The notes under the pieces are model-generated. The model did not search any database. It was given only the letters and a program-made list of their open reading frames with translations, and was not told the DNA's origin. The translations under genes were made by a program, and so were the position numbers. 64,000 bases of DNA from Spirochaetia bacterium (GTDB lineage Bacteria > Spirochaetota > Spirochaetia > SZUA-6 > Bin103): assembly GCA_965208065.1 (NCBI GenBank), contig OZ242313.1, positions 253,207 through 317,206 of the forward strand, written 5' to 3'. Positions 45,118 through 61,210 of the stretch are shown here, one piece after another; the stretch's first letter is position 1, and each line of letters starts with the position of its first letter.

Positions 45118-45525
45118 TTGTCATTCGAAGCCCTCCGCCGGCGTGTCCGGGTGCTGGTCGCCAAGACCCCGGTGGTGGGAATCATCCTGTCGGTCGCCAC
45201 CCTGTACGGACTGTGGCTGGTGGCAACCGCGACCACGGTCCCGGAGTTCATCTCTGCGGCGGCGCAACCGTCGGACGAACGGGTGTTCTTCGCCGATTTT
45301 CCTGCTACGCCCGGCACTTCCATAACGCGAGTATCGATCGTCGACGGCAACGGAAAGCGATTCGATGCGAAGCTGCTCCGCCGCGAGAGTACCGCGGCAC
45401 GAACCCACGTTTGGGCGCGCTCGGCCGGCGGGATCGAGACTCCGGATGCCACGATGGAGCTTGCCGTGGGTGAGCGATCCCTGCTCAGCTACGCCGTTGC
45501 GGTGCTGTTTCGGCGGGACCGATGA
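45118..45525 (+). CDS. Small membrane-anchored protein, truncated HlyD-like accessory
   Basis: N-terminal TM helix; C-terminal ELAVGERSLLSY resembles MFP ends; ATGA overlap with the ABC gene. Confidence 0.5.
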   Translation: MSFEALRRRVRVLVAKTPVVGIILSVATLYGLWLVATATTVPEFISAAAQPSDERVFFADFPATPGTSITRVSIVDGNGKRFDAKLLRRESTAARTHVWARSAGGIETPDATMELAVGERSLLSYAVAVLFRRDR

Positions 45526-47285
45526 GCCCGGATCCCGGCGCCACCGGCAGGGCAGGTCAACGCAGCCGCCTGGCGTTCGCGTGGCGGATGGCGCGTGGCG
45601 ACCGGATGGCGTGGGTCACGTCCCTTGTCAACGCTCTGTTCACCCACTTCTTCCGTGCTCTGCTGCCCATCGTGTACGCACTCGTTGTCGACCAGGTAAT
45701 CACCCACCGGGATCTGTCGTTGGTGCCGGCGCTGGCGTTGTGTTTCGCCATGATGCTGGCCGCCAACGAAGGGCTGTTCGCCATCGGTCACGTGTCCTGG
45801 GTCTACAAGGTTACCGACTTCGACGCCAAGGTGCGCCGGCGCATATTTCGCCGCATCCTCTCGGCGCGGAGCGAGTCGCTCGAACGCCGCAAGACGGGCG
45901 ACCTGGCGGAGACGGTGGAGACCGATGCGCAGCAGATCACCTGGTACGTCGACGAACTCGGCATCTGGATTCCGGATGCGTTCATCGGACTGGTCATAGC
46001 GTTGCTGTTCATGGGAGCCATCAGTCCGCTCCTGGCGCTCCTTGCCGCCATAGCCGCACCGCTAACCGCTTTCCTCTCCCACCTGATGGGGCTGCGCGGG
46101 CGGCGCGTGGCCGACGCCTATCGCACCCGCTACGGCGGCTACTCGAGTTGGCTGTTCGAAGTCATCCGCGGCGCGGCCGATCTGCAGCAGATGGGAGCCA
46201 CTACCACGGTGGCGCGCTGGCTGGTGGCCCGGCTGCGGGGATTGATCCACCTCAAGGTGAGGCAGTCTCTGGTGGAGCTCTCTTCGGAGCGGGTTCGCGA
46301 ACTGGTCGCGACGGTGCTGGAGATCGCGTTCTTCGTGGCGGTCAGTGCGCTGGTCCTTTCCGACCGGCTTTCCATCGGCGGATACATCGCGGTGGCGACT
46401 TACTTCCTGACCGCCCGCGACGAGCTCAGCAAGATCAGCGACGACCTGTTCCAGCTGCGCATCTACTCGGTGGGGGTGGACCGTATCCGCGATGTGATGG
46501 ATTTGCCGTCCGAACACGACCGCGGTCCGGCCCTCGACGCTGCCCCGCGAGCGGTCGTCTTCGATGACGTCAGATTTCGGTACCGCCAGGACGTTCCGGT
46601 GCTGGAGGGGATTTCGTTGCGGGTGGAGCCTGGCGAGCAGGTAGCGATTGTCGGCGGCAGCGGCGCGGGCAAGTCCTCGATCGTCACACTGCTCGCACGG
46701 CTGCGCGATTCTGAGTCCGGCTCGGTCATGATCGGTGAGCACAACGTCGCGCACTACTCCCGTACGTCGGTGCGCAGATGGTTTGGATTCGTGCAGCAGG
46801 ATCCGCTGATATTCAGCGACACCGTGCGCGCCAACCTTTGTCTGGAAGCCACGAACGAGAGTGCCGAGAGGATCTCCGACCAACTGCTGTGGGAGGCCTG
46901 CCGGGTTGCGCAGATCAGTGACACCGTGCACCGCTTCCCGGACAGCTTGGACACGTTGATCGGATCCGAAGGGCGGACGCTTTCGGCGGGTGAGAAGCAA
47001 CGGCTGGAGCTGGCCCGGGTGCTGCTGCGGCAACCGACCGTGCTGGTGATCGACGAGGGGCTTTCCGCGGTCGATCCGGACACCGAGCGCTCCATCTACC
47101 GCCGGCTGTTCGGCGCCGACCGGTGCCGTTCGACCATCATCATTGCTCACCGTCTCAGTTCGATCATCGATTGTCAGCGCATTCTTGTCCTGGACGGAGG
47201 GGTCATTGCCGCATCCGGTTCGCACGATGAACTGATCCGCGACTGCGCCGCCTATCAGCGGCTCTTTCGGGAGCAGGTCGAGTGA
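45522..47285 (+). CDS. ABC exporter, TMD-NBD subunit
   Basis: TM domain, GGSGAGKS, LSAGEKQR, IDE, IAHR. Confidence 0.9.
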   Translation: MSPDPGATGRAGQRSRLAFAWRMARGDRMAWVTSLVNALFTHFFRALLPIVYALVVDQVITHRDLSLVPALALCFAMMLAANEGLFAIGHVSWVYKVTDFDAKVRRRIFRRILSARSESLERRKTGDLAETVETDAQQITWYVDELGIWIPDAFIGLVIALLFMGAISPLLALLAAIAAPLTAFLSHLMGLRGRRVADAYRTRYGGYSSWLFEVIRGAADLQQMGATTTVARWLVARLRGLIHLKVRQSLVELSSERVRELVATVLEIAFFVAVSALVLSDRLSIGGYIAVATYFLTARDELSKISDDLFQLRIYSVGVDRIRDVMDLPSEHDRGPALDAAPRAVVFDDVRFRYRQDVPVLEGISLRVEPGEQVAIVGGSGAGKSSIVTLLARLRDSESGSVMIGEHNVAHYSRTSVRRWFGFVQQDPLIFSDTVRANLCLEATNESAERISDQLLWEACRVAQISDTVHRFPDSLDTLIGSEGRTLSAGEKQRLELARVLLRQPTVLVIDEGLSAVDPDTERSIYRRLFGADRCRSTIIIAHRLSSIIDCQRILVLDGGVIAASGSHDELIRDCAAYQRLFREQVE

Positions 47286-49012
47286 ACACCGGGGCCTCCG
47301 ACCTCAGCCTGGACCAGACCAAGGCGGCCCTGCGCCCGGCAGGTTTGTTGACCGTGCTGCTGGTGGTGCTGAAGGGCCTCCTGGTTGTCACCACGTTGAT
47401 CCCGCCGGCGCTGACCGGACTGTTCGTCGACGAGGTGCTGGTCGGTCGAAATGCGGATCGCCTCTGGCTGATGCTTGGGGCCTTCCTCGCAGTCTACGGA
47501 GTGGAAACCGTACTCAAGGCGGTGGAGATCCTGATGCAGAACCGCGCGGTCCACCGCGTGGTCTTCCGCCAGAGAATGCGGGTCTTCCGCTCCATCCAGC
47601 GGCTGCCGTGGAGCGAATTGATGCGTCATGCCCCCGGCGAGTTGCTCAAACGCGTGGAGGACGACAGCGAGGAACTGGGCGCATTGTTGCTGCAGCGGAT
47701 CGAACGCATCTTCAACTGGTGTCTCATCGTGGCGGGGGGCGTGGTGTGCGTCGCCATGAGCTGGCAGCTCGCGCTGGCCGCCTCCGCGCTCACGACGCTC
47801 CTCTGGCTGGCGGGGCGGTGGATCAAACGGCAAGCCGGCGTGCGCAGCCACGCGCACCGGGAAGCGATGGGGAGGTGGTCCGCCTGGTTGCACGAGTCGC
47901 TGCTCGGCTGGCGCGAGGTGCGCATGCTGGCGATCGAGAACGAACAGAGCGCGAAGATGGCGGCCTGGCTGCGCAGAATCAACCGGCTGCGCGGGGCAAG
48001 CCATACCTTCACGTACCTGCAGCACGCCATCGGACGCCTGCAGGAGCACTACGTCTCACAGGCAACGCTGTACTTTCTGGGCGGCGTGCTGATCTTCGCC
48101 GGGTCGCTGACCCTGGGCGGGCTGATTGCTTTCATGCGCTACTTCGCGCGCGTCCTGGATGCCGCCGATCGAATCAACGCACTGAACGCCGAGCTGGGTA
48201 ACCTGCAACCACGCCTGAGGCGCTCCTTCGAAGTTACCGAATGGCCGCAGATTCCACCCCCGAGGGCGCGCCTCGCACCGGCTGTCGTGCCCGAAATCGA
48301 GCTGCGTGACGTGGTCCTCGCGTACGACGGAGCCGAGCCCGTGCTGCGCGGCGTCGACTGCGTCATTTCCGCCAACAGCCGGGTAGCTGTCGTGGGCTCG
48401 TCCGGCAGCGGCAAGTCCACCATTGCGCGCATCGTTGCCGGTCAGCAATTGCCCACTTCGGGCGAGTTGCGTATCGGCGCCCGCCGGTTGCAACCGACCG
48501 ATGGCATGCGGGCGCTGGGAACCGCGATTCTGATTGGCCAGGACAGCGTCGTCTACAACATGTCGCTCAGGGAAAACCTGCTGCTGGCTCGTCCACGAAG
48601 TACCGACGGCGAGCTGTTGGCAGTCTGCGCCGACGCCCAGCTGCAGGAACTGGTCGAGCGCTTGCCCGGGGGGCTTGATGCGGTGGTCGGCGAGCGCGGG
48701 CGGCAGCTCTCGGCCGGAGAGCGGCAACGGCTCATTCTCGCCCGAACCATGCTGCTCGATCGTCCGATCCTGGTTCTCGATGAAGCGATGTCGCAACTCG
48801 ACGACCCCACCGCACGGTCAATCAATCAGAAACTGGTCGGCGAACGAGATCAGGGAACGGTGATCGTTATCGCTCATCGGGTCAGTACCATCGTGGATCT
48901 GCCGCGCATCCTGGTGCTCGACGGCGGACGGATCACGGCGGACGGCCGACACGCCGAATTGCTGCGCACCAGCGAAAAATACCGCACCCTGTTTGCTTCG
49001 GAGCCCGAGTAA
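47282..49012 (+). CDS. ABC exporter, TMD-NBD subunit (heterodimer partner)
   Basis: GSSGSGKS, LSAGERQR, LDE, IAHR. Confidence 0.9.
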   Translation: MNTGASDLSLDQTKAALRPAGLLTVLLVVLKGLLVVTTLIPPALTGLFVDEVLVGRNADRLWLMLGAFLAVYGVETVLKAVEILMQNRAVHRVVFRQRMRVFRSIQRLPWSELMRHAPGELLKRVEDDSEELGALLLQRIERIFNWCLIVAGGVVCVAMSWQLALAASALTTLLWLAGRWIKRQAGVRSHAHREAMGRWSAWLHESLLGWREVRMLAIENEQSAKMAAWLRRINRLRGASHTFTYLQHAIGRLQEHYVSQATLYFLGGVLIFAGSLTLGGLIAFMRYFARVLDAADRINALNAELGNLQPRLRRSFEVTEWPQIPPPRARLAPAVVPEIELRDVVLAYDGAEPVLRGVDCVISANSRVAVVGSSGSGKSTIARIVAGQQLPTSGELRIGARRLQPTDGMRALGTAILIGQDSVVYNMSLRENLLLARPRSTDGELLAVCADAQLQELVERLPGGLDAVVGERGRQLSAGERQRLILARTMLLDRPILVLDEAMSQLDDPTARSINQKLVGERDQGTVIVIAHRVSTIVDLPRILVLDGGRITADGRHAELLRTSEKYRTLFASEPE

Positions 49013-49033
49013 AGTCGTATCTCCCATCCCGAG

Positions 49034-49447
49034 CTACAACTGCGTGGCAAGGCGCGTGCGGACGGTGTCGATCTGGTTCAGGAGCCGGTCTGCTCGCTGC
49101 ACGGAATCTTCCGCCTCCGACCGCGAGGTGGACTCGAAGTCGCCGTAGTCCACGTCGGTACGCCGGGTCATCAGCGTTTTGAAATCCTTGGCAACGCTGA
49201 CCGGCAACAGCTTGGTCCTGATGAACCGCAGGCTGAGGATAGTCACCGCGCCGCCGTGTGATTCCGGATTTACGCCGTCGAGAATGAGCAGCGCGCGTAC
49301 CGCACTCAGGGCGGCGTAGTAGCTGCGGTTCACCGCGTTATTCAACCGCTCGTCGGCCAAGGTTGCCCGTGCATCGGCGAGAGCCTCGCGCGCCTTGGCG
49401 AAGCGGATATCGCTGAGCGTCTTCTTGTCGTCGACGTTCAGCGTCAT
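49034..49447 (-). CDS. HEPN domain protein (UPF0332-like)
   Basis: AVNRSYYA, SHGG, RTDVDY (R-x4-Y). Confidence 0.85.
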   Translation of the reverse strand: MTLNVDDKKTLSDIRFAKAREALADARATLADERLNNAVNRSYYAALSAVRALLILDGVNPESHGGAVTILSLRFIRTKLLPVSVAKDFKTLMTRRTDVDYGDFESTSRSEAEDSVQRADRLLNQIDTVRTRLATQL

Positions 49448-49782
49448 ACCGGGATGGCCTCCCGCGCCACGTTCTCGTAAAAGGGTGAGTGGTACCGGCG
49501 TTCGAGCGCGAAGCTGGCAGAATCCTTGATCACCGGATCGAATGGGATGCCAGTGCGCAATTCCTCCTCGACGCAACTGTCGATGACGGCGCGTTCTACC
49601 TCCGGGGTACGTCCCGTGACGACCACAAGCAAGTCGAGGTCCGACTCACCCCCGTGATCGCCTCGCACGCGCGACCCGAAGGCGTAGATGGCCTCCAGCC
49701 GGACGTCTCCCTGGCTGTTCTCCAGACGTGTTCTAATCGCTGTGGCGACTCGCGCCAATGCCTGTCGTGTGGGCGTATACAC
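49444..49782 (-). CDS. Minimal nucleotidyltransferase (MNT)
   Basis: FGSRVRGD...SDLDLLVV; overlaps the HEPN start. Confidence 0.85.
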   Translation of the reverse strand: MYTPTRQALARVATAIRTRLENSQGDVRLEAIYAFGSRVRGDHGGESDLDLLVVVTGRTPEVERAVIDSCVEEELRTGIPFDPVIKDSASFALERRYHSPFYENVAREAIPV

Positions 49783-49812
49783 TGACGTGCTTCCGCATCA
49801 GGATAACCGTAA

Positions 49813-49988
49813 CTCGGCGAGCGCTTCCAGGGAACGGTGATCGTCATCGCCCACTGCGTCAGTACCATCGCCGACCTGCCGCGCATCCTGGTGCTCGACG
49901 GGGCCGCATCGCAGCGGACGGCACCCACGCCGACCTGCTGCGCACCAGCACCAGGTACCGCAACCTGTACTCCCCACCACCCGAGTAG
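49813..49988 (+). repeat. Diverged copy 2 of the 3' end of ABC gene 47282-49012
   Basis: GERFQGTVIVIAHCVSTIADLPRILVLDG..(frameshift)..DGTHADLLRTSTRYRNLYSPPPE*, homologous to ~48836-49012. Confidence 0.88.
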
Positions 49989-50113
49989 CCCGCTGGCGAC
50001 TGGCTCGCGCCGCTGGCGCCCCGGCGGCTGGACATCGGAGCCAGCGTGAACCACCATTGCAGCAGCCCGCTGGGCTTCCCGGTCGCCAAGCACAACACCA
50101 TCGGAGGAATGCG

Positions 50114-50464
50114 ATGAGAGAATCCGTGCCCCGACGCGTCACCGAATCAGGAATCTTCGTATGGCCATGGGCTACGCCACACGGTCTCGCGATTGTTGTG
50201 GGCGCGGCGGGCGGCGGCGGTGGCGGGGGCGGGGCCCTTTGTCTTGAGGGCTTGAACCTCTTTGGCGCGGGCGGCGGCGGTGGCGGTGGTGGCGGCGCCG
50301 CCACCACCGTTCGCACTGGAGACAAGATACACAGGGCTGCCGGCGGCAGTGGTGGTGACGGCGGTGGTGGTGGCGACGGCTACAAACAAGGTGATACGGG
50401 AGCCAGCGGCAACGGTGGAGTTGTATTGTTCGTGCCTTTGCCTGCTGAGGAAGGAGACGATTAG
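50114..50464 (+). CDS. Small glycine-rich protein (Gly-rich domain-like)
   Basis: GGAGG RBS; TESGIFVWP...VVGAAGGGGGGGG...GASGNGGVVLF. Confidence 0.6.
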   Translation: MRESVPRRVTESGIFVWPWATPHGLAIVVGAAGGGGGGGGALCLEGLNLFGAGGGGGGGGGAATTVRTGDKIHRAAGGSGGDGGGGGDGYKQGDTGASGNGGVVLFVPLPAEEGDD

Positions 50465-51076
50465 TGGATTCCGCTCAAGCCGAGACTGGCCGTGTTGGTC
50501 TGGCTTCACGCGATGCGTTTCTTTCGGAATTGGATCTGGATCCCGATGGTCGTGTGGAGTTGTTGGAACTACTGTCTGGAAGGATACCTGAAGACTCGGT
50601 CGAAGAGCTGCTCGATGGTCCGTTTCGTCGACGAAGAAAACTGCGGACCAGAACGCGTTATTCGGATGGGTCGTATCCCGTGTTCTACAGTGCTCTGCAG
50701 GAAGAAACCGCCGAGTCTGAAGTGGCTTTTCTGGTTTGGTAAAGAGTACGTTGGAAGGCCGAAGCGCAGTCGTACCGCCTACTATCAGGGATTCCGTTGC
50801 ATGTTCGATGGTGTCGAGAAAGACCTTCGGTCCAGGGCACAGGAGTGGCCAGACTTGGTCCACGATAGTGATTATTCGTTTTGCAACCAACTCGGCGCAG
50901 AAGCCCTCGCGTTGGGCATAGATGGACTGGTCGTCCCGTCAGCCCGGCATGAAGGCGCAAACATGCCGATTTTCGTGCGCCGGGCGCTGAGCAATCCGAA
51001 GTTGGCCGACATCGTGGCGGTAACTTACCGGATCGACAGGAATGACGTAGTGGTCGCTCGTCCGAATCAGCGATAG
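50464..51076 (+). pseudogene. RES-domain toxin split by a frameshift
   Basis: TRYSDGSYPVFYSAL.EETA.SEV in one frame and DY..CNQLG...GL.VPSAR..G.N in the next; shift at the T-run ~50727-50730; AAGGAG RBS. Confidence 0.78.
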
Positions 51077-51162
51077 CGCAGCGGCAGCAATGCGAACCTC
51101 CGAAACGACAACCTCCCTCGCTCGGCAAAGATTCGCGGAGACTTCCGGAGCGAGCCAATCAC

Positions 51163-52203
51163 TCAGACCACCGCGGACTCGGGGATCGAGAGCTTGCGAC
51201 GGTTAGAGTCGATGCGGAGGCGGACGCCCAGTGGCAGCACCATCATCGGGTCGGTGTGGCCGCAGTCGATGTTGCTGACGATCGGCAGGTCACGCATTCC
51301 GTACTCTTCCCGCACCGTGCGGCACAGCGTGTCCGCGTAAGCCGGGAACTGCGCCGGATCGATCTGCCCACCCGGACGCCCGAGCAGAATGCCGGCGAGC
51401 GGCTGCAGGCAGCCCATGGCCGCCAGTGAACGGATGAACCGCGCCAGCAGCTCCGGCGACGCTGCCTCTTCCGACGTCTCCAGAAACAGAATGGAGCCGT
51501 GTAGCGAGTCCGCCGCGGGGAACACCGGGGTACCCCGCAACCAGTCCAGCACCTCGACGCAGCCGCCGAACAGCCCGCCCTCCACAACGCCCTCCCGCTG
51601 GTGGAAGACCCAGCCGGTGCACGGATTGAGCTTGCGTGCGACCGGCTGCGTCGAGGGATCCGCCCAATCCGTGTGCTCAACCGTCCAGCCGCTGTCATTC
51701 GGCGCCAGTGCGCCGATCGGCTCGCAGTCGAACAGCGTCCGGCGCACGGAGTCCACCATGTAGGGAAACATGCCCCCGTTCTCGCCGAACCCCGCCATGA
51801 ACGAGGGCCCGTAGAAGGACACCAGCCCGGCCGCGCGGCACACGCAGTGCGTTACCGTGGTGTCCGAGTAGCCCAGGAACACCTTGGGATTGCTCCGTAT
51901 CACGTTCGTGTCGAGGTACGGCAGGAGCCGGATCGAATCGTCTCCGCCAATGGTGGAGATGATGCCGTCCACGCGCGGGTCGGCGAACGCCGCCATCAGG
52001 TCATCCGCGCGTGCCCGCGGGTTGCGCGCCAGCCAGTCGGGATCGCGCAAGGCGTGCTCGGTCTCGGTCACGGCGACCCGGAACTCCTCCTCAAACTGCC
52101 GCTTGCCCGCGGCATAGCGATGCGGAAACGCTCCCGGCCCGCCCCAGGACAGAGAGACGGCCGCTACGCAACCACCCCGTATCAGTCGCTTCGGTTTGAT
52201 CAT
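51163..52203 (-). CDS. LD-carboxypeptidase / S66 peptidase (MccF-like)
   Basis: IGGDDS, FLGYSDTT, LFLETSE, GHTDP triad motifs. Confidence 0.9.
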   Translation of the reverse strand: MIKPKRLIRGGCVAAVSLSWGGPGAFPHRYAAGKRQFEEEFRVAVTETEHALRDPDWLARNPRARADDLMAAFADPRVDGIISTIGGDDSIRLLPYLDTNVIRSNPKVFLGYSDTTVTHCVCRAAGLVSFYGPSFMAGFGENGGMFPYMVDSVRRTLFDCEPIGALAPNDSGWTVEHTDWADPSTQPVARKLNPCTGWVFHQREGVVEGGLFGGCVEVLDWLRGTPVFPAADSLHGSILFLETSEEAASPELLARFIRSLAAMGCLQPLAGILLGRPGGQIDPAQFPAYADTLCRTVREEYGMRDLPIVSNIDCGHTDPMMVLPLGVRLRIDSNRRKLSIPESAVV

Positions 52204-52218
52204 GCAGACGGGCGGCTT

Positions 52219-52398
52219 TCAATCCTCGCGCCAGGGCAGCCGCCAGGTGCCCAGCGACGGCGCGAAGCTCACCACCAACAACGTCAGGCCGGCCATGGTC
52301 AGCACCGCCAGGGCCAGCACCGGCGCCAAGCCCCAGGTGAGGTGGGTCTCCACGCCGGCCAGCAGCCCGAAGCCGAACAGGGCGGGGACGATGATCGC
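52219..52398 (-). pseudogene. 3' fragment of a membrane protein gene
   Basis: AIIVPALFGFGLLAGVETHLTWGLAPVLALAVLTMAGLTLLVVSFAPSLGTWRLPWRED*, with no start. Confidence 0.45.
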
Positions 52399-52494
52399 TC
52401 CGGACCCAACGCGATCACCTGGAAACCGAACGACTGGCGAGGTTCATGTTCCCGGACGCTATCACGAGCTCGATACGGCGTCCATAAGGGCCGT

Positions 52495-52635
52495 GAGCGA
52501 CGAGCGCCGCCGGGGGGGACGGTGATTGTCATCGCGCATTGCGTCAGCACGATCGTCGATCTGCCACGCATCTTGGTCCTCGACGGCGGGCCGATCACCG
52601 CGGACGGCCGGCTCGCCCCTCTGCGGCGCACCAGA
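52495..52635 (+). repeat. Diverged copy 3 of the 3' end of ABC gene 47282-49012
   Basis: DER..GTVIVIAHCVSTIVDLPRILVLDGGPITADGRLAPLRRT. Confidence 0.85.
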
Positions 52636-52721
52636 TCTCAAGGAGACGGCCCCGCCAGCGGCAAGTGGTGGCCCAAGTAGCGCCAGGTGAGGTCAGATTC
52701 GAGTTTGTCGTATATTGGCGC

Positions 52722-53547
52722 ATGCGAGGGGCCACTCGGCAGGACGCGGCAGCGCTGCGTTTCGAAGCGGATCTGGACCTGGACGGCCGCTACGCGTGCG
52801 AAACGGTGGAGGCGAGCGCGGACGAGGTGCGCGTCCTGGACGGTGCGGGGCGCGCGCGGGTCACCTTGCCGCGCGGCCGCGTGGCCGGCCTCGATGTGGA
52901 GTCCTACGTGTCGAGCGGCGCGCTGTATGCGCGGGTGGACGGTGCGCCGTGCGAGCTGGTGCGCTTCACCAACGGGCGGATACCGGCGGCCGCCGCGTTC
53001 GTCCGGGCAATGCGCGACGGCGCGGCGACGGCGGAGGCACCCGCGCAACGCGCGGAGCAGGGCACCGGAGATACGGGGCACGCCTTTACGCGGTGGGCGG
53101 TATTCAGGCGTACGATGCGGTTCGCGCCGAGGCAGCCGGCGAAGCTGGCGTTGGTGGTGGCGGCGCTCTTGCTGCACACCGGGGCCAACGTTGCGGCACC
53201 ATATCTCGCCGGGACCGTGTTCTTCGACCGCGTTCTCACGCCAGCCGACACACTGTTCGGCCAGGTGGGACTGCTGGTGGCGATGATCGCCCTGGTGCGG
53301 CTCGCCGAGTTGGTGTTCCGTGTCGTGTGGGGCTGGATCTGGGGCCTGTACCATCATCGCATCGGCCTGAACCTGCGCTCGGCCGTGTTCGCCGGGGTCC
53401 ACCGCCTGTCGCTCGGCTTCTTTTCCAACAACCTCACCGGCTCGCTGCTCACGCGCATGAACAGCGACATGAACGGAGTGGGCTCGCTGCTCGGTACCAT
53501 CGCGCCGAATGGCTTCGTGCAAGCGGTCATGATGGTGGGCAGCATCG
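52722..53547 (+). pseudogene. ABC exporter with N-terminal extension, truncated in the TMD
   Basis: DLDLDGRY..ESYVSSG..LVRFTN extension, TMD motif TGSLLTRMNSD, no NBD; sequence switches to foreign fragments at ~53547. Confidence 0.75.
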
Positions 53548-53698
53548 AGCGGCACGCGCCAAGCGTCCCGTTCGGCGGACGTCAAGGTGCGGTCCTGCAG
53601 CGCCTCCAGCGCCAGCTGCTCGGCGCGGTCCCAGTCGAGTGTGTTCGTGGCGACGTGGAAGTCCAACTCGCGTTGCCAGCGTTCTACTTGGTCATGCT

Positions 53699-53900
53699 TC
53701 ACTCGCATCCCTCCAGCACGGCCTCGAGGGCGTCGACCTCGCGCCGGTCGATCGTCAGGCCGTACTCCTGGCGGACCGCGATCACCGTGCGGGCAAACCG
53801 GCAGCGGTTGAGATCCGGCAGCCAGTCGGCCGCGTCCTTCGCGACCTTCTCGTGGCGGTTCAACGCCGGCGTTGCGAGCGTCAGGTTGTCGAGGTCGCTG
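53699..53900 (-). pseudogene. C-terminal fragment of a DUF1524/GmrSD-like HNH nuclease
   Basis: DLDNLTLA.PALNRHEK.AKDAADWLP..NRC.F...V..VR..YGLTID..E..AL..VL.GC. Confidence 0.65.
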
Positions 53901-53996
53901 ACGCAACGCTTCCGCACCGCCAGGCTAGCCCGCGCAGAGTCCGCTGTCGTGCGCTTCCGACCGCGCGACTATGTGTTCGATGTCCGATTCCTTGAG

Positions 53997-54024
53997 GCTC
54001 AGTTGCTCAGTTGCTCAGTTGCTC
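53997..54024 (+). repeat. 8-bp tandem repeat, 3.5 copies
   Basis: (GCTCAGTT)3 GCTC. Confidence 0.7.
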
Positions 54025-54128
54025 GACAATCAGGAGCTCGAGATCCTGCGCGTAGTCGAAGTGACAAGTAATCGCTACTCAACGTCCGAATCGTCGCTCC
54101 TCCGGTACCAGGTGGCCTAGCCGTGAGA

Positions 54129-54866
54129 CTATCGGAGCGAAATAACCTCGCCGTGCCAACATCCGGTGCATCGGCGCGCCACCAACAGGGACTCCCCGTT
54201 GGAATCCACTTGAGCAATGAGATCCCCTTGTTCGTCCCAAATCGCACTCCTTCCGGCAGATTCCCGCCCGCCGCTTTGCCCAGCATAGTTCGACGTCAAG
54301 ACAGCCATTCGATGAGAGGTCGCGTATCGCTTCATCCTGTATGCATGATTCGCCATCTCATCTTCTGTTTTCATTATGGACGCAACGTATAGCTGAGCGC
54401 CGCGCGTGGCCACGGCGGCGACGTGAGAGGGGTAGCTCGTATCTGCGCATATCGCTAGGCCCACACCAACTCTGCGAACTGAAACTACACAACTGTTTTC
54501 GCCAGAGATGAAATACGGAGATTCGCTCGCAGGGATATGTACTTTCGCGTAACAGACAGTTCGTTGGGGTGAAACTATCAGTGAGCCGAGATACGGCCTC
54601 TCTTCCTCCGATGTTAGAGGTCCACCGACAACTACATGCATTTGATGTTTTTTTGCCGCTCTTCGTATCGGCTCTAGACGAGTGTCGTCTCTCTTCAACT
54701 GTATCGAGGCAGCAAGATCCAACTCGTATCCGATAAGAGACAATTCAGGGAACACGAGCAGACTGCAACCAGCAGAAGCGGCTCTTTTGATGAACCGCAA
54801 ATGAGCAATGGTGTTTTCCTGCAAGTCGCCCCTCACAGCCGATGATTGTGCGGCGCCGATGATCAT
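54129..54866 (-). CDS. Carbon-nitrogen hydrolase family protein (lower GC, likely foreign)
   Basis: VFPELSL.GY, YAKVH, LAICAD (E-K-C triad), G.SAIW. Confidence 0.87.
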   Translation of the reverse strand: MIIGAAQSSAVRGDLQENTIAHLRFIKRAASAGCSLLVFPELSLIGYELDLAASIQLKRDDTRLEPIRRAAKKHQMHVVVGGPLTSEEERPYLGSLIVSPQRTVCYAKVHIPASESPYFISGENSCVVSVRRVGVGLAICADTSYPSHVAAVATRGAQLYVASIMKTEDEMANHAYRMKRYATSHRMAVLTSNYAGQSGGRESAGRSAIWDEQGDLIAQVDSNGESLLVARRCTGCWHGEVISLR

Positions 54867-55810
54867 GTTGTTCTGTTGTTCTCTATGGATCCCACGAAGG
54901 TAGTAACATTCCGCGTCAATCTCATGGTGGACGACGGACTTAGAAACTGTCAAGCCGACCTCTATCCGCCCCAACCCACCTTTCACGAGCCGGGCCGCCG
55001 CCCGGGCGTAATCAACCGTCGGCGCCTCCTCCGCGGTCGCACCGCCTCCGGGTGGACGCAGCCGCTTCGCGGGCGCTGCTGGGAGATCCTGGACTGCTGG
55101 TGCTGGATGAGCCGGGGAATCACCTGGACTACGCCGGTCTGGAGTGGCTGGAGGAGATGCTCGCCGGCTTGCCGGGCGGCGTACTGCTGGTCTCCCACAA
55201 CCGGCGCCTGCTAGACCGGACGGTTACCAGCATCCTGGAACTGACCGGAGGCCGTATCCGTGAATACCGCGGCAACTACACCGACTACCGGCTCGCCCGA
55301 CTGCAGTCACTGGTCGCCCGCCTGGCGGCGGTCGCTGCCGTGCGTTCCGATAAGGCGCACGGCAAGCGGCTGCGGGCGCGGCGCACGCAGCTCGCCCGCG
55401 AAGAGAGGCAGGCCGTGGCACGGCCCGATCTCCGGGAGGAGCGGGTGTCGGTGGTGTTGCCGCCGGCTCGCAGCGAGGCGAACGTGGCGTTGCAGGTGAT
55501 TGGCTATGAGCGGGGTTTCGGTGGACGGGTCCTGTTCCGGGACGCGCGCCTGGAGATCTCCTGCGGGGAGCGGGTCGCGCTGGTGGGGCCCAACGGCTGC
55601 GGCAAGAGCACGCTGCTGCGCGACATCGTGACCCACGGCGCGTGGGAGCACCCGGTGCTGCGCGTGGGGCCGAGCCTGACCGTCGGCTACTGCGCTCAGA
55701 ACCAGGACGCGTTCGCCGCGGATCAGACTATCCTGGATGCGTTCGTCGACTTGGGGCTGGGCAACCGACGGGAGGTCCTGGGTGCCCTGCGGTGGTACCT
55801 GTTCACGTGG

Positions 55811-57208
55811 GGGATATGATCAGAAGTTGTGGATGAGATAAAATGAGCGTACCCCCTGAAATACAGATTCGACCCCCGAATCAAGAGGAGTACGCTCGTG
55901 GAGAATATTACGCTCAGGGACATCGAGGCACAAGGGCCTGGATCGGTACTGGAAGAACTAGCACGCCGGGGAGCGCAGCAGATGCTGGCCCAGGCGATGG
56001 AAGCTGAGGTGGCGTTGTTCATCGAGAAGCACGCCGACAAGGTGGACGGAAACGGCCACCGGACGGTGGTGCGGAACGGGCACATGCGAAAGCGGGAGTT
56101 GGTGACCGGGATAGGCCGGGTGCCGATCAAGCAACCGCGGGTGGATGATCGCCAACTCGCCAAGCAAGGGGAAGAGAGGTTCAGCAGCGCGATCCTGCCG
56201 CGCTACCTGAAGCGAGTGGCGAGCGTGGACAGCCTGATTCCGGCGCTGTACCTGAAGGGAGTGTCGACGGGGGACTTCTCGGAGGCGCTGAAGGCGATCC
56301 TGGGGGAAGGAGCGCCTGGGCTGAGTGCGAACAGTGTGGTGCGGCTGAAGGCGGTGTGGGAGCAGGAGTATAGGCAGTGGACGCGGCGCGACCTGAGCGG
56401 CAAGCGGTACGTGTATATGTGGGCCGACGGGCTGCATGTGAACGTGCGGCTGGATGAGGAGCGCAGTTGCATCCTGGTGATCATGGGGGCGGACGAGTAC
56501 GGCAACAAGGAACTGGTGGCGGTCAGCGACGGCTATCGGGAGAGCGCGGCGTCGTGGCGAGAGATACTGCTGGGTGTGCGGCGGCGCGGGCTGGTGATCG
56601 GGCCGCGGCTGGCAACGGCCGACGGCGCGCTGGGGTTCTGGAAGGCGTTGCGGGAAGTGTATCCGGGTACGGGCGAGCAGACCTGTTGGTTCCACAAGGC
56701 AGGCAACGTATTGGACAAGATGCCGAAGTCGGTGCAGAGCAAAGGCAAGGCGATGGTCCGCGAGATGTGGCAGGCGCCGTCGCTGGAGAAGGCCAAGGCA
56801 GCCTACGACCAGTTCTGCGAGGCATGGGCGGACAAGTATCCGAAGGCGGTCGAATGCCTGCGCAGGGATGAGCAGTCGTTGTTCAGCTTCTACGCGTTTC
56901 CGGCGGCCCACTGGGTGCATCTGAGGACCAGCAACCCGATCGAGTCGACGTACGCGACGGTGCGCTTGCGGACCAGGCGGACGAAGGGCTGCGGATCGCG
57001 GACGGCGACCCTGACGATGGTGTGGAAGCTGGCGTTGGAGGCGGAGAAGACCTGGCGCCGACTGATGGGCTTCAAACTGATCCCGCTGGTGATGGAGGGG
57101 CGGGAATTCGTCGACGGAGAGCTGACGGAGGCAGCTGCTTAGGCAACCGGATCAGGGGATGACGGCGCTCGCGATTCGACCCTCATCCACAACACTTGAC
57201 AATATCCC
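55811..57208 (+). mobile_element. IS256-family insertion sequence with 9-bp target duplication
   Basis: IRL GGGATATGATCAGAAGTTGTGGATGAG, IRR (rc) GGGATATTGTCAAGTGTTGTGGATGAG; TSD TTCACGTGG at 55802-55810 and 57209-57217. Confidence 0.93.
55898..57142 (+). CDS. IS256 family transposase
   Basis: RNGH, LYLKGVST, YMWADG, ADGALGFW, Q.CWFHK, RTSNPIES. Confidence 0.95.
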   Translation: MENITLRDIEAQGPGSVLEELARRGAQQMLAQAMEAEVALFIEKHADKVDGNGHRTVVRNGHMRKRELVTGIGRVPIKQPRVDDRQLAKQGEERFSSAILPRYLKRVASVDSLIPALYLKGVSTGDFSEALKAILGEGAPGLSANSVVRLKAVWEQEYRQWTRRDLSGKRYVYMWADGLHVNVRLDEERSCILVIMGADEYGNKELVAVSDGYRESAASWREILLGVRRRGLVIGPRLATADGALGFWKALREVYPGTGEQTCWFHKAGNVLDKMPKSVQSKGKAMVREMWQAPSLEKAKAAYDQFCEAWADKYPKAVECLRRDEQSLFSFYAFPAAHWVHLRTSNPIESTYATVRLRTRRTKGCGSRTATLTMVWKLALEAEKTWRRLMGFKLIPLVMEGREFVDGELTEAAA

Positions 57209-57316
57209 TTCACGTGGGACGACCTGGACAAGCAGATCGGCGTGCTGTCGGGCGGCGAACGCAACCGCCTGCAGATTGCAGCGGCGGTGCAGCGCCGGGC
57301 CAACTTCCTGATCCTC

Positions 57317-57535
57317 GGGCGCGCGCTTGTTGCGATCCTCACAAACCGTTTTGGGTACCACGCTGTCCATTAGCGCGGCAGTCACATCGTGCTGGAGACC
57401 TTGGAGCCTTCAAGACACCGGGTCGTGGTCCCTGACCATCCCGCAATTCGCATCGGAACCCTCAACTCGATGCTGCGAGCAGTAGCAGCCCACAAAGGGA
57501 TCGACCGCGGAGAAATCCTCGGACAGGGGCGGTGA
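57317..57535 (+). pseudogene. HicA-family toxin remnant with an internal stop
   Basis: GRALVAILTNRFGYHAVH*RGSHIVLET...VVVPDHPAIRIGTLNSMLRAVA; TAG at 57371. Confidence 0.75.
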
Positions 57536-57834
57536 GTCTGAGACGCTGCGCATGATGAGCGCGTGAACGTGCGACTCGACCCGGTTCGTGGAGTACGTTC
57601 GCACCATTTCCTCCGCGCTCCACGTCGCCTTGTCCAGCACCCACACGGAGCTGCCTCGGTCGCGCCAGGTCGGCTTGTGCTTGTCGCTATCCGCGCCGGG
57701 CCACTTGCAAGCTGTCGGCGAGCGCAGTCGAGTGGCGCGCCGGCAGCGCGGAGGAGGCGCAAAATGGGGGGCTGCGGCGGAGCGGCCGGTCCGTAGCCGT
57801 GGCGCATTCTGTGATGAGCAAAGCAGCGGAGCCA

Positions 57835-57854
57835 TAATGCGGTGCACCGCATTA
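57835..57854. repeat. Perfect 20-bp palindrome built from the RIT terminal core
   Basis: TAATGCGGTGCACCGCATTA, 6 bp outside the RIT end. Confidence 0.9.
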
Positions 57855-57941
57855 GCCTTATAATGCGGAGTCCGGGGTAATGCGGAGTGACATGACTGAA
57901 ATCCTTGCGGGAAGGGCTGTTGAGGCGTGGATCGCTGCGCA

Positions 57942-58934
57942 TTATCCCGGGGCCAGAAGCGAGGAGATCAGTTCGTCGGGAGCCTTGAATCGCCCGCGGC
58001 GGAGTTGCGGCGGGAGCACGGCTTCGACGGCCTCCAGCTTGTCAGTGGGATCGACGCGCAGGTAGACCTCGGTGGTGCGCACGTCGGCGTGCCCCAGCCA
58101 CAGCGCCACCTTGCGGATGTCTCCGGTAGCCTGCAGCATGGTGAGGGCGCAGCTGTGGCGGAGTTGGTGAGGTGAGATCGAACGTCCCGCCAGCGAAGGA
58201 CAGGCGGTCGCGGCGGTCCGCACATGCTTGTCCAGGATGTACTCGAATCCGGCGCGGCTCATCGGCCTGTCGGTGGCGTTCAGGAACACCTCCCGCGCCG
58301 GGTTCTCGCCGCGGACAGCGAGCCAAGCCCGGAGGTCAGCGACGGTTTGTTTCCACAGCGGGAGACAGCGTTCACGGCGGCCCTTGCCATGGACGCGGAG
58401 ACTCGCGGTTCCGCGCAGCGACAGATCTGGCAGCTGCGCCGTCACCAGTTCGGACACGCGCAGAGCAGCAGCGAAGCAGAGATGGAGCATGGCGCGGTCG
58501 CGGACGCCGAACCGAGTGGTGATATCCGGAGCGTCCAGAATCGCGTTGACCTCGTCCATAGTCAGGTGGCGGACGAGCGGATGATCATGGCGCTTGGAGG
58601 GGATGGCGCGGATCTGTCTGGCTTGTTCCAACGCAGCCGGATGACGGAATTCGACGTAGCGCATGAAGGCTTTCACGGCCGCCAGTCGGACGTTGCGGCT
58701 GGCCGGGCTGCCGCCACGATCGACCTCGAAGTGGGTAAGGAACGCGACGATGAGCGGGGCATCGAGATGTTCAAGATGAAGCGCCGACGGTGTGATGCCG
58801 AGGCGTCCGGCGGCGAAAGTGAACAACAAACGGAAGGCATAGGCGTAGCTCTCGCAGGTATGCGGGCTGAAGCCGCGCTCCACGGGAAGGTAGTCACGCA
58901 GGAAGTGGGTAATCAGTGGTGCGATGGGAGTCAT
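57942..58934 (-). CDS. Tyrosine recombinase (RitC)
   Basis: LRVSE, GKG, PHQLRHS, LGH, TEVY. Confidence 0.92.
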   Translation of the reverse strand: MTPIAPLITHFLRDYLPVERGFSPHTCESYAYAFRLLFTFAAGRLGITPSALHLEHLDAPLIVAFLTHFEVDRGGSPASRNVRLAAVKAFMRYVEFRHPAALEQARQIRAIPSKRHDHPLVRHLTMDEVNAILDAPDITTRFGVRDRAMLHLCFAAALRVSELVTAQLPDLSLRGTASLRVHGKGRRERCLPLWKQTVADLRAWLAVRGENPAREVFLNATDRPMSRAGFEYILDKHVRTAATACPSLAGRSISPHQLRHSCALTMLQATGDIRKVALWLGHADVRTTEVYLRVDPTDKLEAVEAVLPPQLRRGRFKAPDELISSLLAPG

Positions 58935-59842
58935 GCCAACCTCCCGGAAACGAAGTTCTCGCCGGTCGTGGCGATGTCGGCCATCAATTCGGGAGTCGCC
59001 TCCAGATACCAGTAGGTGTGGACGACGTTGGTGTGCCCGAGATAGGTGGAGAGCGCGACCAGGTGACGCGCCACTGATTCGCGCCGCACCGCACAGCGTT
59101 GCAGGGATCTGGTGGCAAAAGTGTGGCGCAGATCCACCATCCGCGGACGGCGCTGGCGGCCAACAGCGATGCCGGCAAGCCTGACCACCCGCTGGAAGGT
59201 GCCACTGGCCGTAGGTGTCGGGATGCGCCGGTGGTGAGCCGACACGAACAGGTGGTCGTCGGCGATGGCGACGCTCTGCCGCTCGTGCAGGTACTCAGTC
59301 AACGCTTCGACCGTCGTCGGATGCAACGGCACCAGGCGGCTCTTGGCGAACTTGGTTCGGCGGATGCACAGGACAGAGTTGGGAAGCAGGTCGTCGAAAC
59401 GCAGGTCGAGCGCCTCCGAGACGCGCAGGCCGGTGGCGGCGATGAGTCCGATCAGGGTCGCATAGACGGACCGACGCAGCGCGTAGGAGCACGGCAGACG
59501 GCGCGCCGCCGCCAGTAGTTGCCCGATCTCGGTCGGCGTATAGATGTAGGGCGGCTGGCGGACCACGCGGACATGGAAGTGGCGAGCTGGGGGGATCTCG
59601 TGGGTGGCGTCCTCGGCGAACAGGAAGCGGGCCAGCACGACGACATCGTGAAGTCGAACCGCGCGCGCGTGCGGTGTAGACGCCTGCGCCGCCCACTGCA
59701 CGGCGGTGGCGGCGCGGATGTGGGTGTCGCCCTTGTCGCCGGCGAAGGCTGCGAATGCTTGCAGATTGCGGCCGGTGTCGTGGAGCTTGTAGCCGAGGGT
59801 TCGCCGCAGTGCGAGATAGCGGTCTACGTGGTCACTCAGCAT
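58931..59842 (-). CDS. Tyrosine recombinase (RitB)
   Basis: TGLRVSEA, TKF.KSR, DLRHTFA, YLGH..TYWYL. Confidence 0.9.
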   Translation of the reverse strand: MLSDHVDRYLALRRTLGYKLHDTGRNLQAFAAFAGDKGDTHIRAATAVQWAAQASTPHARAVRLHDVVVLARFLFAEDATHEIPPARHFHVRVVRQPPYIYTPTEIGQLLAAARRLPCSYALRRSVYATLIGLIAATGLRVSEALDLRFDDLLPNSVLCIRRTKFAKSRLVPLHPTTVEALTEYLHERQSVAIADDHLFVSAHHRRIPTPTASGTFQRVVRLAGIAVGRQRRPRMVDLRHTFATRSLQRCAVRRESVARHLVALSTYLGHTNVVHTYWYLEATPELMADIATTGENFVSGRLA

Positions 59843-61077
59843 GTCGTCGTCTGGGGCCACGGCTGGACGATCTCGCCCAGCAGGTCGAAATCTATCTTGG
59901 CGTAGTGCGCGGTGGCTCGCGGATCGCGGTGTCTCAGAACACTGGCGATGCCGGCCAGGGACACCCCGTTGCGCAACATGGCGGTCGCCGCCGAGTGGCG
60001 CAGGAGGTGTGCACCGTGCTGAGGCGCCTTGACCCCTGCTCGACGAAGCGTCCTGTCCACGACACCGGATACGGCGAGCCGAGTCATCGGGCGCCGCGGC
60101 GCCAGCGCAGAGATGAACACCTGTGGCACCGGCAACGGCGGTCTTCCACGGCGCAGATAGGTGACGATGGCGTCGCCAACCTGCTGCGGAAGCGGCAGCC
60201 AGTGTTGGTACCCACCCTTGCCGCACACAGCGATGCGCCCGTTCTGCCAGTCGATGGCATCGAAACTCAGTTCGGCGACCTCGCTGGCGCGCAGGCCCAA
60301 CCGAGCGAGCAGGAGGACTACCGCCCGATCCCTGGCTCCCACGGCATCCTGATCGCTGACGGCGTCGATTACCTTCTCCAGATCGTCAGGCTCGAGGAAC
60401 CGAGGCGTGGAGGCGAGTTGGTAGGACGCGATCCGCGGCACCGCATGGATCAGCCCCTCCGAGCATTGCCCGGTGGCGGCGAGGAACCGCAGGAAGGCGC
60501 GCATCGCCGTTGCGATCCCTTGCGCCGTGGCTACCTTGTGGCCAGCACACCGTCGTAGCATGAAGTCTCGCACCGACGTGGCGCTATAGCTCGACGGATC
60601 AACTCCACAACTAACGATGAAATCGACCACGTAGCGCTGGTAGCCTTCCATCGTGACAGCCGCCACGCCCTGTCGTTCAATCATCCAATCCCGAAATCGC
60701 TGCAACAGTGGCCAGCGCTCGTGCGGCGCCATCGGTTGCTCAGCAGCCGCCAGTACGCCCCGCTCCCGCAGGAACCGGATCAGCGCCTGAGCGGCCGCCA
60801 TCGAGTTTACGTTGGGACCCCGCTGATAGCGAACTCGACCGTGCTCGGACAGCTCCGTACGGCACGCCTCGTATCCCGCCACCAAGTCGACGGCAGTGAA
60901 CGACTTCTCGGTGAGCCAGTCCGTCCATGCCGCCATACTGCGCAGCGTGAGACTGCGCGAGTTCGGCGGAGAGCCGCGGTCCTGCAGCCAATCTGCAAAG
61001 TCGTCGATGTGGCCGCCCGCGGGTCCAGAACGGAGTCGGCGACAAGTGGTCGCCGATTTCAGATGGTCTTCAAGCAT
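59836..61077 (-). CDS. Tyrosine recombinase (RitA)
   Basis: LGLRASEV, GKG, HLLRHS, LRH, HYAK. Confidence 0.9.
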   Translation of the reverse strand: MLEDHLKSATTCRRLRSGPAGGHIDDFADWLQDRGSPPNSRSLTLRSMAAWTDWLTEKSFTAVDLVAGYEACRTELSEHGRVRYQRGPNVNSMAAAQALIRFLRERGVLAAAEQPMAPHERWPLLQRFRDWMIERQGVAAVTMEGYQRYVVDFIVSCGVDPSSYSATSVRDFMLRRCAGHKVATAQGIATAMRAFLRFLAATGQCSEGLIHAVPRIASYQLASTPRFLEPDDLEKVIDAVSDQDAVGARDRAVVLLLARLGLRASEVAELSFDAIDWQNGRIAVCGKGGYQHWLPLPQQVGDAIVTYLRRGRPPLPVPQVFISALAPRRPMTRLAVSGVVDRTLRRAGVKAPQHGAHLLRHSAATAMLRNGVSLAGIASVLRHRDPRATAHYAKIDFDLLGEIVQPWPQTTTC

Positions 61078-61210
61078 GGATGCCTCCTTGCTTGAAGGAG
61101 CGCGATAATGCGAAGTATCGGCTACTCCAACTACCCCCTACACCTGCTTGAATCCCTCTTTATCATCCACGCCGCGCCATCTACTCCGCATTATCCCGGA
61201 CTCCGCATTA

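Follow-up and report, generated by a model that had tools for sequence, protein, structure and literature searches.

The C-terminal tips of rhs genes are proposed to be displaced by homologous recombination with a circular molecule as intermediate (Jackson et al. 2009, PMC2935791), and homology-facilitated illegitimate recombination is the route proposed for the effector-immunity arrays of type VI secretion systems (T6SS) (Kirchberger et al. 2017, PMC5361080). At icd/icdC in E. coli K-12, the site of the prophage e14, the gene ends differ chiefly by synonymous changes (PMC13626634), and restriction-modification (RM) genes are found inserted with a long target duplication and without a mobility gene (Furuta et al. 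2010, PMC2853133). Here we describe a locus that shares features with each of them. It lies in a stretch of 64,000 nucleotides (G000:C1:253207-317206, hereafter the window) from the single-contig 5.03-Mb genome of an uncultured sponge spirochaete. The gene in question is ABC2, the second of a pair of ABC exporter genes, the 3' end of which is present three times in series with toxin-antitoxin (TA) genes and other cargo in between. In our judgement there is about an even chance that repeated recombination anchored in ABC2 brought in a foreign end together with downstream cargo, the old end being kept as a stump (3'-end displacement).

The last ~176 nt of ABC2 (~55 codons) are present twice more in direct orientation, at 49813-49988 and 52497-52680 (Table 1). 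An earlier note, made from the letters of the sequence, had reported these copies at 49813-49988 and ~52495-52635, and both alignment and a blastn search of the whole genome confirm them. Copy 2 is found with E=3.7e-36 (81% over 155 nt) and copy 3 with E=4e-27 (82% over 120 nt), and the next best of the 40 matches has E=2e-6 (78% over 59 nt). Because of this gap in E-value the copies can be considered specific, and generic ABC similarity or unrelated paralogues are ruled out as their source. Copy 2 is immediately preceded by TAA, reads LGERFQGTVIVIAHCVSTIADLPRILVLDG, loses a single nucleotide and continues as RIAADGTHADLLRTSTRYRNLYSPPPE up to a stop; its allele is marked by AHC and ...STRYRNLYSPPPE. 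In copy 3 firm DNA homology covers ~52497-52634, with a poly-G frameshift ahead of GTVIVIAHC, and the last ~15 codons, to the TAG at 52678-52680, are not alignable any more. As the note had also stated, copy 3 is followed by another ABC exporter gene (ABC3). It starts 41 nt further on, and is truncated at ~53543 in the window and intact in a strain that is 99% identical.

Table 1. Features of the ABC2 locus in window coordinates (TMD, transmembrane domain; NBD, nucleotide-binding domain; ORF, open reading frame; IS, insertion sequence).
Feature	Position	Strand	Evidence or remark
ABC exporter gene 1 of the pair (ABC1, TMD+NBD)	45522..47285	+	Pfam ABC_membrane and ABC_tran
Intact ABC exporter gene 2 (ABC2), gene with the repeated 3' end	47282..49012	+	Pfam
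Copy 1, functional ABC2 3' end, VGERDQGTVIVIAHR...ASEPE and stop	48836..49012	+	
HEPN toxin gene	49034..49450	-	Pfam PF05168, E=1.7e-16
MNT nucleotidyltransferase antitoxin gene	49444..49782	-	Pfam PF01909
Copy 2, displaced ABC2 end (AHC, 1-nt deletion after LVLDG)	49813..49988	+	
Gly-rich ORF, variable length	50057..50464	+	
RES-domain toxin gene, frameshifted in this genome	50464..51076	+	Pfam PF08808 in two frames
S66 LD-carboxypeptidase gene	51163..52203	-	Pfam PF02016 and PF17676
ABC-2 permease remnant (5'-truncated, internal 74-codon deletion)	52219..52410	-	tblastn 90% to G003 permease residues 122-171
Filler between permease remnant and copy 3	52411..52496	.	No significant match
Copy 3, displaced ABC2 end (AHC, poly-G frameshift, tail unrecognisable)	52497..52680	+	
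Third ABC exporter gene (ABC3), 5' part, truncated here	52722..53543	+	Pfam ABC_membrane positions 2-131 of 274 only
ABC-F-type gene, 5'-truncated, right border of the variable region	55052..55819	+	Resumes at 57209-57700 after the IS
IS with Mutator-family transposase, inside the ABC-F remnant and outside the array	55802..57208	+	Pfam PF00872

Copies 2 and 3 both begin at the GER codons, within ~4 nt of each other (48836-48840 in the register of copy 1). All partial copies start at one position, as a common crossover point would have it. A longer upstream homology of copy 3 (ELD..TASI, and DPT.RS..GE at 52403-52441) was considered and dropped, the tblastn E-values being about 1-11. Beyond copy 2, no remnants of ABC1 or ABC2 were found in 49013-52496. 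The H-loop histidine is followed by TGC (Cys) in copies 2 and 3 and by CGG in copy 1 and all five orthologues, a difference of two nucleotide changes. Besides the copies themselves, no extra attachment (att)-like or inverted repeats were detected at the block borders. Likewise, the sequences upstream of copies 2 and 3 and those downstream of the three stops showed no similarity that would indicate conserved arms. A hexamer, CTCGGC, is shared by 49814 and 51118, which is within chance. The breakpoint of copies 2 and 3 (window 48833-48845 and orthologues) falls inside an 11-nt near-palindrome, which reads GCTCG-G-CGAGC in the related genome G003 and in copy 2; this sole local peculiarity may possibly be a hotspot.

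The divergence between the three ends is large and mostly synonymous. Over a 119-nt core, the identity is 85.6% between copies 1 and 2, 81.5% between copies 1 and 3 and 79.7% between copies 2 and 3; over the same core copy 1 is 85.7% and 82.4% identical to its orthologues in G003 and G005. Synonymous divergence (dS, Nei-Gojobori) amounts to 0.43-0.72 among the copies, against 0.57-0.92 between species. The ratio of non-synonymous to synonymous divergence (dN/dS, or omega) among the copies is 0.19, 0.14 and 0.16, with values of 0.04-0.11 for working orthologues, and neutral divergence (omega=1) is rejected for the copy pairs (P = 0.002, 0.0002 and 0.0006). Since it is rejected also for copies 2 and 3, these cannot both have been dead since their split. 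The orthologue-level dS and the predominance of synonymous differences indicate that each end was once working, and do not fit duplication in place followed by decay. The three ends are therefore alleles from separate lineages, in which they stayed functional during the greater part of their past; the mostly synonymous divergence is the main support for this past function of the displaced ends. Decay rises with the distance from ABC2: copy 2 carries one (polymorphic) frameshift, and copy 3 a frameshift, a lost tail and a 62-nt deletion. Many synonymous changes, a shared AHR-to-AHC change, a nearly common first codon and decay of both extra copies had all been claimed in the earlier note, and all four hold in the alignments.

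The layout of the array is not an assembly artefact, because independent contigs agree on it. In a metagenome contig (L060) with 99% identity along 13 kb the parts follow each other in the same order, and contigs of four sequencing runs from four studies cover or bridge the copies in the same arrangement, which rules out the assembly chimera that had been named as a possible refutation. One of these runs, X11, may be the sample from which the genome itself was assembled. The runs that hold this stretch are mostly sponge metagenomes. Behind copy 3, L060 has an intact ABC3-DUF1854-ABC4 operon. The strains are polymorphic in small ways, and the array is now eroding by small deletions. A segment of 62 nt reaching into copy 3 (52470-52531) is deleted in L060 and in three of the four runs (X13, X16 and X1). 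In run X11 a second haplotype joins 49006 to 49830, so that the whole HEPN-MNT unit (49007-49829) is missing and ABC2 would end in ...EPRER. This joint may best be read as a deletion derivative and not as an empty site, because it also lacks 17 nt of copy 2 and, at the end of ABC2, the last two codons of the orthologue type. In the same haplotype an extra G after 49899 abolishes the frameshift of copy 2. One base at 50727 is missing from the RES gene in X13, X16 and X1, a loss that would join both RES frames. No circles or back-joints between copies were seen among 15 of 17 joints, in contigs that cannot show rare forms.

The Gly-rich ORF, which matches no Pfam family, is ~224 nt longer in L060 and X1. 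It is built of GGC/GGT repeats (50200-50380), several strain joints lie within 50232-50362, and it occupies the position where a RES antitoxin would be expected. Downstream of the truncated ABC3, a low-GC patch (52-56%) at 53544-55050 contains a gene for a carbon-nitrogen hydrolase (54129-54986) as well as an HNH-like fragment. The patch stands in place of the remainder of the ABC3-DUF1854-ABC4 operon, which L060, X1 and X13 carry; the hydrolase is also found in X16. Run X16 shows the uninterrupted site of the IS (joint 55801 to 57209). The transposase of this IS has nine hits in the genome at 91-100% amino acid identity (seven of them full-length at >=99.5%) besides weaker ones.

The comparison with related genomes that the earlier note had asked for also sets the array apart. 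ABC2 orthologues, syntenic with ABC1, are present in G003 and G005 (87% amino acid identity) and in G014, G018 and G022 (66-67%). None of these five relatives has an extra copy of the ABC2 end in the 9-19 kb examined per locus, and the downstream genes differ in all of them. The homology of the relatives to the window stops at the ABC2 stop codon or 28-67 nt before it. In G003 and G005 a convergent SDR gene follows 7 nt after the ABC2 stop. G003 continues with an FMN reductase gene, a third ORF, a PIN gene and then an intact ABC-F gene 3.1 kb downstream of ABC2, to which the ABC-F remnant of the window is 81% identical in amino acids. As the intact ABC-F gene follows the variable genes in G003 and a truncated one is found in the window, ABC2 and ABC-F bracket a variable region. 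Wider scans of genomes and metagenome contigs returned only the same four or five orthologous loci and one near-identical strain. G003 also has an orphan, frameshifted ABC2-like pseudogene piece of ~400 nt (L116 = G003:C5:617000-629000, at 5780-6200), with AHR and other boundaries. An N-terminal fragment resembling ABC3 (L116 10198-10342) follows 4 kb downstream of this piece, and ABC2 of G003 itself is far away; the piece indicates that ABC2-type remnants also arise by plain decay.

The contents of the cargo blocks had been named correctly: Pfam supports HEPN, MNT, RES and S66. The HEPN and MNT (NTP_transf_2) genes are adjacent with a 7-nt overlap, which is the arrangement of the HEPN-MNT type II/VII TA systems. 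The HEPN stop lies 21 nt beyond that of ABC2 and the MNT start 30 nt from copy 2. Less certain is that the blocks between the copies are units of insertion, as the earlier note had supposed, since HEPN-MNT and the permease are neighbours in congeners. In G001, G003 and G004 they keep the same order and orientation, with the homologue of the permease remnant on the MNT side at a distance of 314 nt in G001 and 930 nt in G003; G004 shares the MNT-side flank of G003. HEPN-MNT adjoins an aldehyde dehydrogenase gene in G004 and G010 and is near one in G001, and over this unit the similarity of the window to G001, G003 and G004 breaks off at exactly 49813. What had been called a membrane fragment corresponds in G003 to the 3' portion of an ABC-2 permease gene that is intact there (256 aa, Pfam ABC2_membrane) and lies behind an ABC ATPase gene, and the remnant in the window retains only residues 122-171 and 246-256. 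The Gly-rich ORF and RES co-occur in G005 and G007, and the S66 ORF is conserved alone at other loci in G003, G007, G004, G022 and G017. Elsewhere in the host genome (G000:C1:1247800-1249300) a shorter second remnant of the same ABC-2 permease has as its neighbours a gene for aldehyde dehydrogenase, an ORF of 195 aa and one that is HEPN-like. The HEPN-MNT/permease block probably had its ancestral home here, from which MNT-HEPN is now gone.

Another point concerns the enzymes that could have moved these genes. No integrase or resolvase is recognised by Pfam in 48836-55000, in accordance with the earlier note, and no integrase is present in the block in any strain seen (this genome, L060 and the runs). 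Genome-wide, the 16 hits to PF00589 consist of two adjacent Xer-like genes, 12 hits in four trios, one weak hit and one broken gene, and there are no hits to the serine recombinase family PF00239. As far as this genome shows, neither a recombinase in an element nor a matching helper was found. The trios belong to an element with four copies in the genome at 99.7-100% amino acid identity, one of them in the window (genes at 57942-61200), which we take to be of the 'recombinase in trio' type. At window 57852-61219 this element consists of three adjacent tyrosine-recombinase genes with 37-nt terminal inverted repeats, and it is absent there in L060. Tandem repeats lie further downstream in the window (72 nt x3 at 61770-61985 and 66 nt x2 at 62719-62848).

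With 3'-end displacement, the stretch from ABC2 to the degraded ABC-F gene would be a gene-acquisition hotspot, into which recombination with its left-hand anchor in the 3' part of ABC2 brought new genes. On two or more occasions, DNA of a related lineage within the genus would have recombined with the resident ABC2, carrying the donor's own ABC2 end and whatever followed it, and the incoming end would have become the working one. The right-hand join would have been illegitimate, or a circle would have entered by a single crossover, and what had been the end until then, beginning with the GER codons and running to the stop, would have remained as a stump downstream of the new cargo. Copy 3 would then be the oldest end, still in front of its old neighbour ABC3. 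Copy 2 would have arrived with the Gly-rich ORF and RES (possibly with S66 and the permease piece too), and copy 1 with HEPN-MNT, unless HEPN-MNT came afterwards. No more than host RecA-type recombination and end joining would be needed; ComEC and Ku are both encoded in the genome. An anchor in ABC2 is suggested because the left side is always exact (ABC2 intact) while the right side is destructive (permease, ABC3 and ABC-F truncated), the junction at 49813 has a microhomology of at most 1-2 nt, no integrase is found and the ends are of orthologue grade. We infer the order of events, the donors and the route; the latter could be homology-anchored or Campbell-type recombination, or involve a recombinase in trans. 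The repeated insertion with new 3' ends that had been proposed earlier is therefore in line with the orthologue-grade ends, the common boundary and the graded decay, but its unit structure is in doubt.

Several observations weigh against such displacement. The sliding-window identity along ABC1-ABC2 to G003 and G005 has no clear step at 48836, so that a breakpoint within ABC2 itself was not retained; the last 177 nt of ABC2 are 83.6% and 80.2% identical to these two genomes, against 84.5% and 86.8% overall. An omega of 0.5, as expected if one partner was dead throughout, is rejected just marginally (P = 0.03-0.08). AHC is common to both displaced copies, yet these are otherwise no closer to each other than to the rest. 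Among 40 relatives, none turned up as a donor in which any of these cargos comes after ABC2. The order HEPN-MNT...permease is easier to reconcile with one block that copy 2-Gly-RES(-S66) has split than with two end replacements in succession; either that, or both donors had the permease operon as the right flank of an ABC2 hotspot. Homology-facilitated illegitimate recombination is marked by one exact homologous side and by one illegitimate junction, with 0-8 nt of microhomology and damaged recipient DNA, and retention of the anchor (a duplication) is not its usual outcome. The same recipient position would have been used twice in the putative illegitimate joins, and two independent joins at the same nucleotide (to ~4 nt) are unlikely unless there is a hotspot or an inherited boundary. 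This shared boundary is the best argument for a site-specific step, though it could instead have been inherited from a founding cassette. Such a cassette, free of a recombinase, would consist of small circles with the last ~58 codons of the host gene plus cargo (TA modules in this case), which move between congeners and insert by a single RecA-type crossover. The gene end of the cassette would be kept functional by selection, since it becomes the working end at each insertion; the 5' boundary would be fixed by descent, older ends would be pushed downstream as the array grows, and the shared AHC would lie in a part of the homology arm that never has to work. We consider this elaboration unlikely.

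A site-specific step could also mean that small elements targeted the GER site of ABC2, each with a replacement 3' end, and accreted in tandem, the integrase acting in trans or having been lost since; e14 at icd, tycheposons at tRNA genes and cis-mobilizable elements that lack an integrase follow this pattern. If crossovers are fixed to one point, copies 2 and 3 are expected to have a 5' boundary in common, a selected, element-borne end explains the synonymous bias as at icd/icdC (PMC13626634), and integration at a secondary site could place copy 2 inside the HEPN-MNT...permease block. However, the missing integrase holds for every strain seen, the genome is without an ordinary island integrase, conserved arms are lacking beside copies 2 and 3 and past the three stops, the 'elements' would measure a mere 0.8-2.5 kb, and no related element occupies the ABC2 site among the 40 relatives. 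It is a course of events that we regard as possible but doubtful. Copies 2 and 3 might otherwise be the last bits of complete ABC2-type genes from larger foreign blocks, their common boundary being due to chance. The many gene fragments beside intact homologues in this genome (a crude screen, see below), the permease, here likewise a remnant with an internal deletion, the other boundaries of the G003 orphan piece and the deletions that continue in the population are all compatible with such decay. It is nonetheless improbable that both remnants, out of a 1.7-kb gene, should begin within ~4 nt and both reach the stop codon position, that copy 2 should be nearly free of lesions (frame-intact in one haplotype) despite the loss of 1.55 kb, and that no further remnants of ABC1 or ABC2 should be left in 49013-52496. 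An insertion in place with a long target duplication, whereby the last ~176 nt of ABC2 were duplicated and then diverged in situ, would give the same form, namely direct repeats of a gene end around an addiction-type module without a mobility gene. Repeats of 46-423 bp are reported for such cases (PMC2853133), and some other duplicated gene ends here look neutral (omega 0.75-1.1 in 5 of 13 pairs). But a dead copy should give an omega near 0.5-1, whereas the repeats at ABC2 are 80-86% identical with a dN/dS of 0.14-0.19 and a dS as great as between species, and the repeats in the cases described by PMC2853133 are near-identical. This makes a target duplication very improbable at this locus.

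A self-comparison of the genome, one of the checks proposed in the earlier note, brought up other places where an intact gene is followed by cargo and a diverged 3' stump, though with a mixed omega. The stump screen was made with ORFs filtered by GC content at third codon positions (GC3), and hits longer than 450-700 nt or above 97% identity were dropped. Genes with a downstream 3' stump include an SBF-like transporter (G001 has the site without insert), a 354-aa protein of unknown family (an HTH/ImmA gene as cargo), a GFO/IDH oxidoreductase (13 kb including a Fic gene) and three OppC-type permeases (ParE in one, AAA_14-DUF4143 in another). Fragments beside an intact homologue, counted crudely, numbered 17 downstream and 8 upstream for 3' ends, 6 and 5 for 5' ends, and 21 and 12 for mid-gene fragments. 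Omega of the duplicated-end pairs is 0-0.25 in six of 13 and 0.5-1.1 in seven. We claim no one mechanism for all these cases, because the selection signal is mixed and OppC is multicopy, with dozens of 75-80% paralogues in the genus. The genome is rich in gene remnants of several origins; in one class of them past function has left a clear signature, and the ABC2 array is of this class.

Two observations on these families stand on their own. With one 5-kb query (L093), OppB/OppC-type permeases gave 55-59 matches each in G001, G003 and G005, and the matches listed have 72-94% nucleotide identity, mostly 75-80%. A sequence of ~290 nt that abuts the stump of the SBF gene (L095 3113-3408 = G000:C1:242113-242408) is multicopy in congeners, with six places in G005 at 90-91%, and may be a small mobile element of the non-autonomous kind.

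A large part of all accessory genes sits in hotspots without an integrase, though the route by which DNA enters them is mostly inferred. The ABC2 locus offers a readable record in this respect: three orthologue-grade ends in series, a common breakpoint, graded decay and polymorphism at the strain level. If the recombination was homology-anchored, 3'-end displacement would not be confined to polymorphic toxin genes but would serve generally as a means for defence and TA modules to spread among related symbionts without mobile-element machinery, with a signature that can be searched for in any genome, namely a diverged stump of the upstream gene's end. If the circular cassettes considered above exist, they would constitute a general, so far unnamed route of accessory-gene gain at ordinary genes.

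Compared to the described systems, the array has a place of its own. With rhs and T6SS loci it shares an intact gene followed by orphaned 3' pieces in series, each with its own downstream genes and without an integrase. There, however, the tips are toxin domains that are not related to each other and come with cognate immunity genes, and no more than a short conserved core is common to them, whereas ABC2 is an ordinary ABC exporter gene, the ends of which are orthologous along their whole length (NBD C-termini), and its cargo (HEPN-MNT, RES, S66 and the ABC operon) has no evident functional link to it. The variable toxin tip with a cognate immunity gene directly downstream that characterises rhs, contact-dependent inhibition (CDI) and T6SS loci is not seen at the ABC2 array. 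As at e14/icd, the working gene runs on into the insert, with a C-terminal pseudogene on the far side; e14, though, is a 15-kb prophage with its own site-specific system, while the inserts here are 0.8-2.5 kb, carry no recombinase and leave two displaced ends in series. The earlier note had likened the array to islands that target tRNA genes, which is a fair analogy, although no att-type arms were found. In tycheposons (bioRxiv 10.1101/2020.12.28.424599) and the Dehalococcoides ssrA islands (PMC3146451), integration takes place repeatedly at one site, older inserts and partial target copies are pushed further in, and degenerate remnants without an integrase occur. Direct repeats of the target 3' end at the insert borders, as expected of att accretion, are present at ABC2 in three copies. 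The islands differ in their tRNA or tmRNA targets, the tyrosine recombinases on board and att repeats of ~20-40 nt. RM insertions resemble the array in that an addiction-type module lies between long direct target repeats, sometimes overlapping a gene 3' end, but the published repeats are near-identical and both derive from one target, whereas here they are orthologue-grade alleles. In the literature searched on displacement, long target duplication and homology-facilitated illegitimate recombination, the arrays listed all belonged to toxin, T6SS or RM loci, so that an ordinary ABC gene carrying TA cargo is new among displacement arrays.

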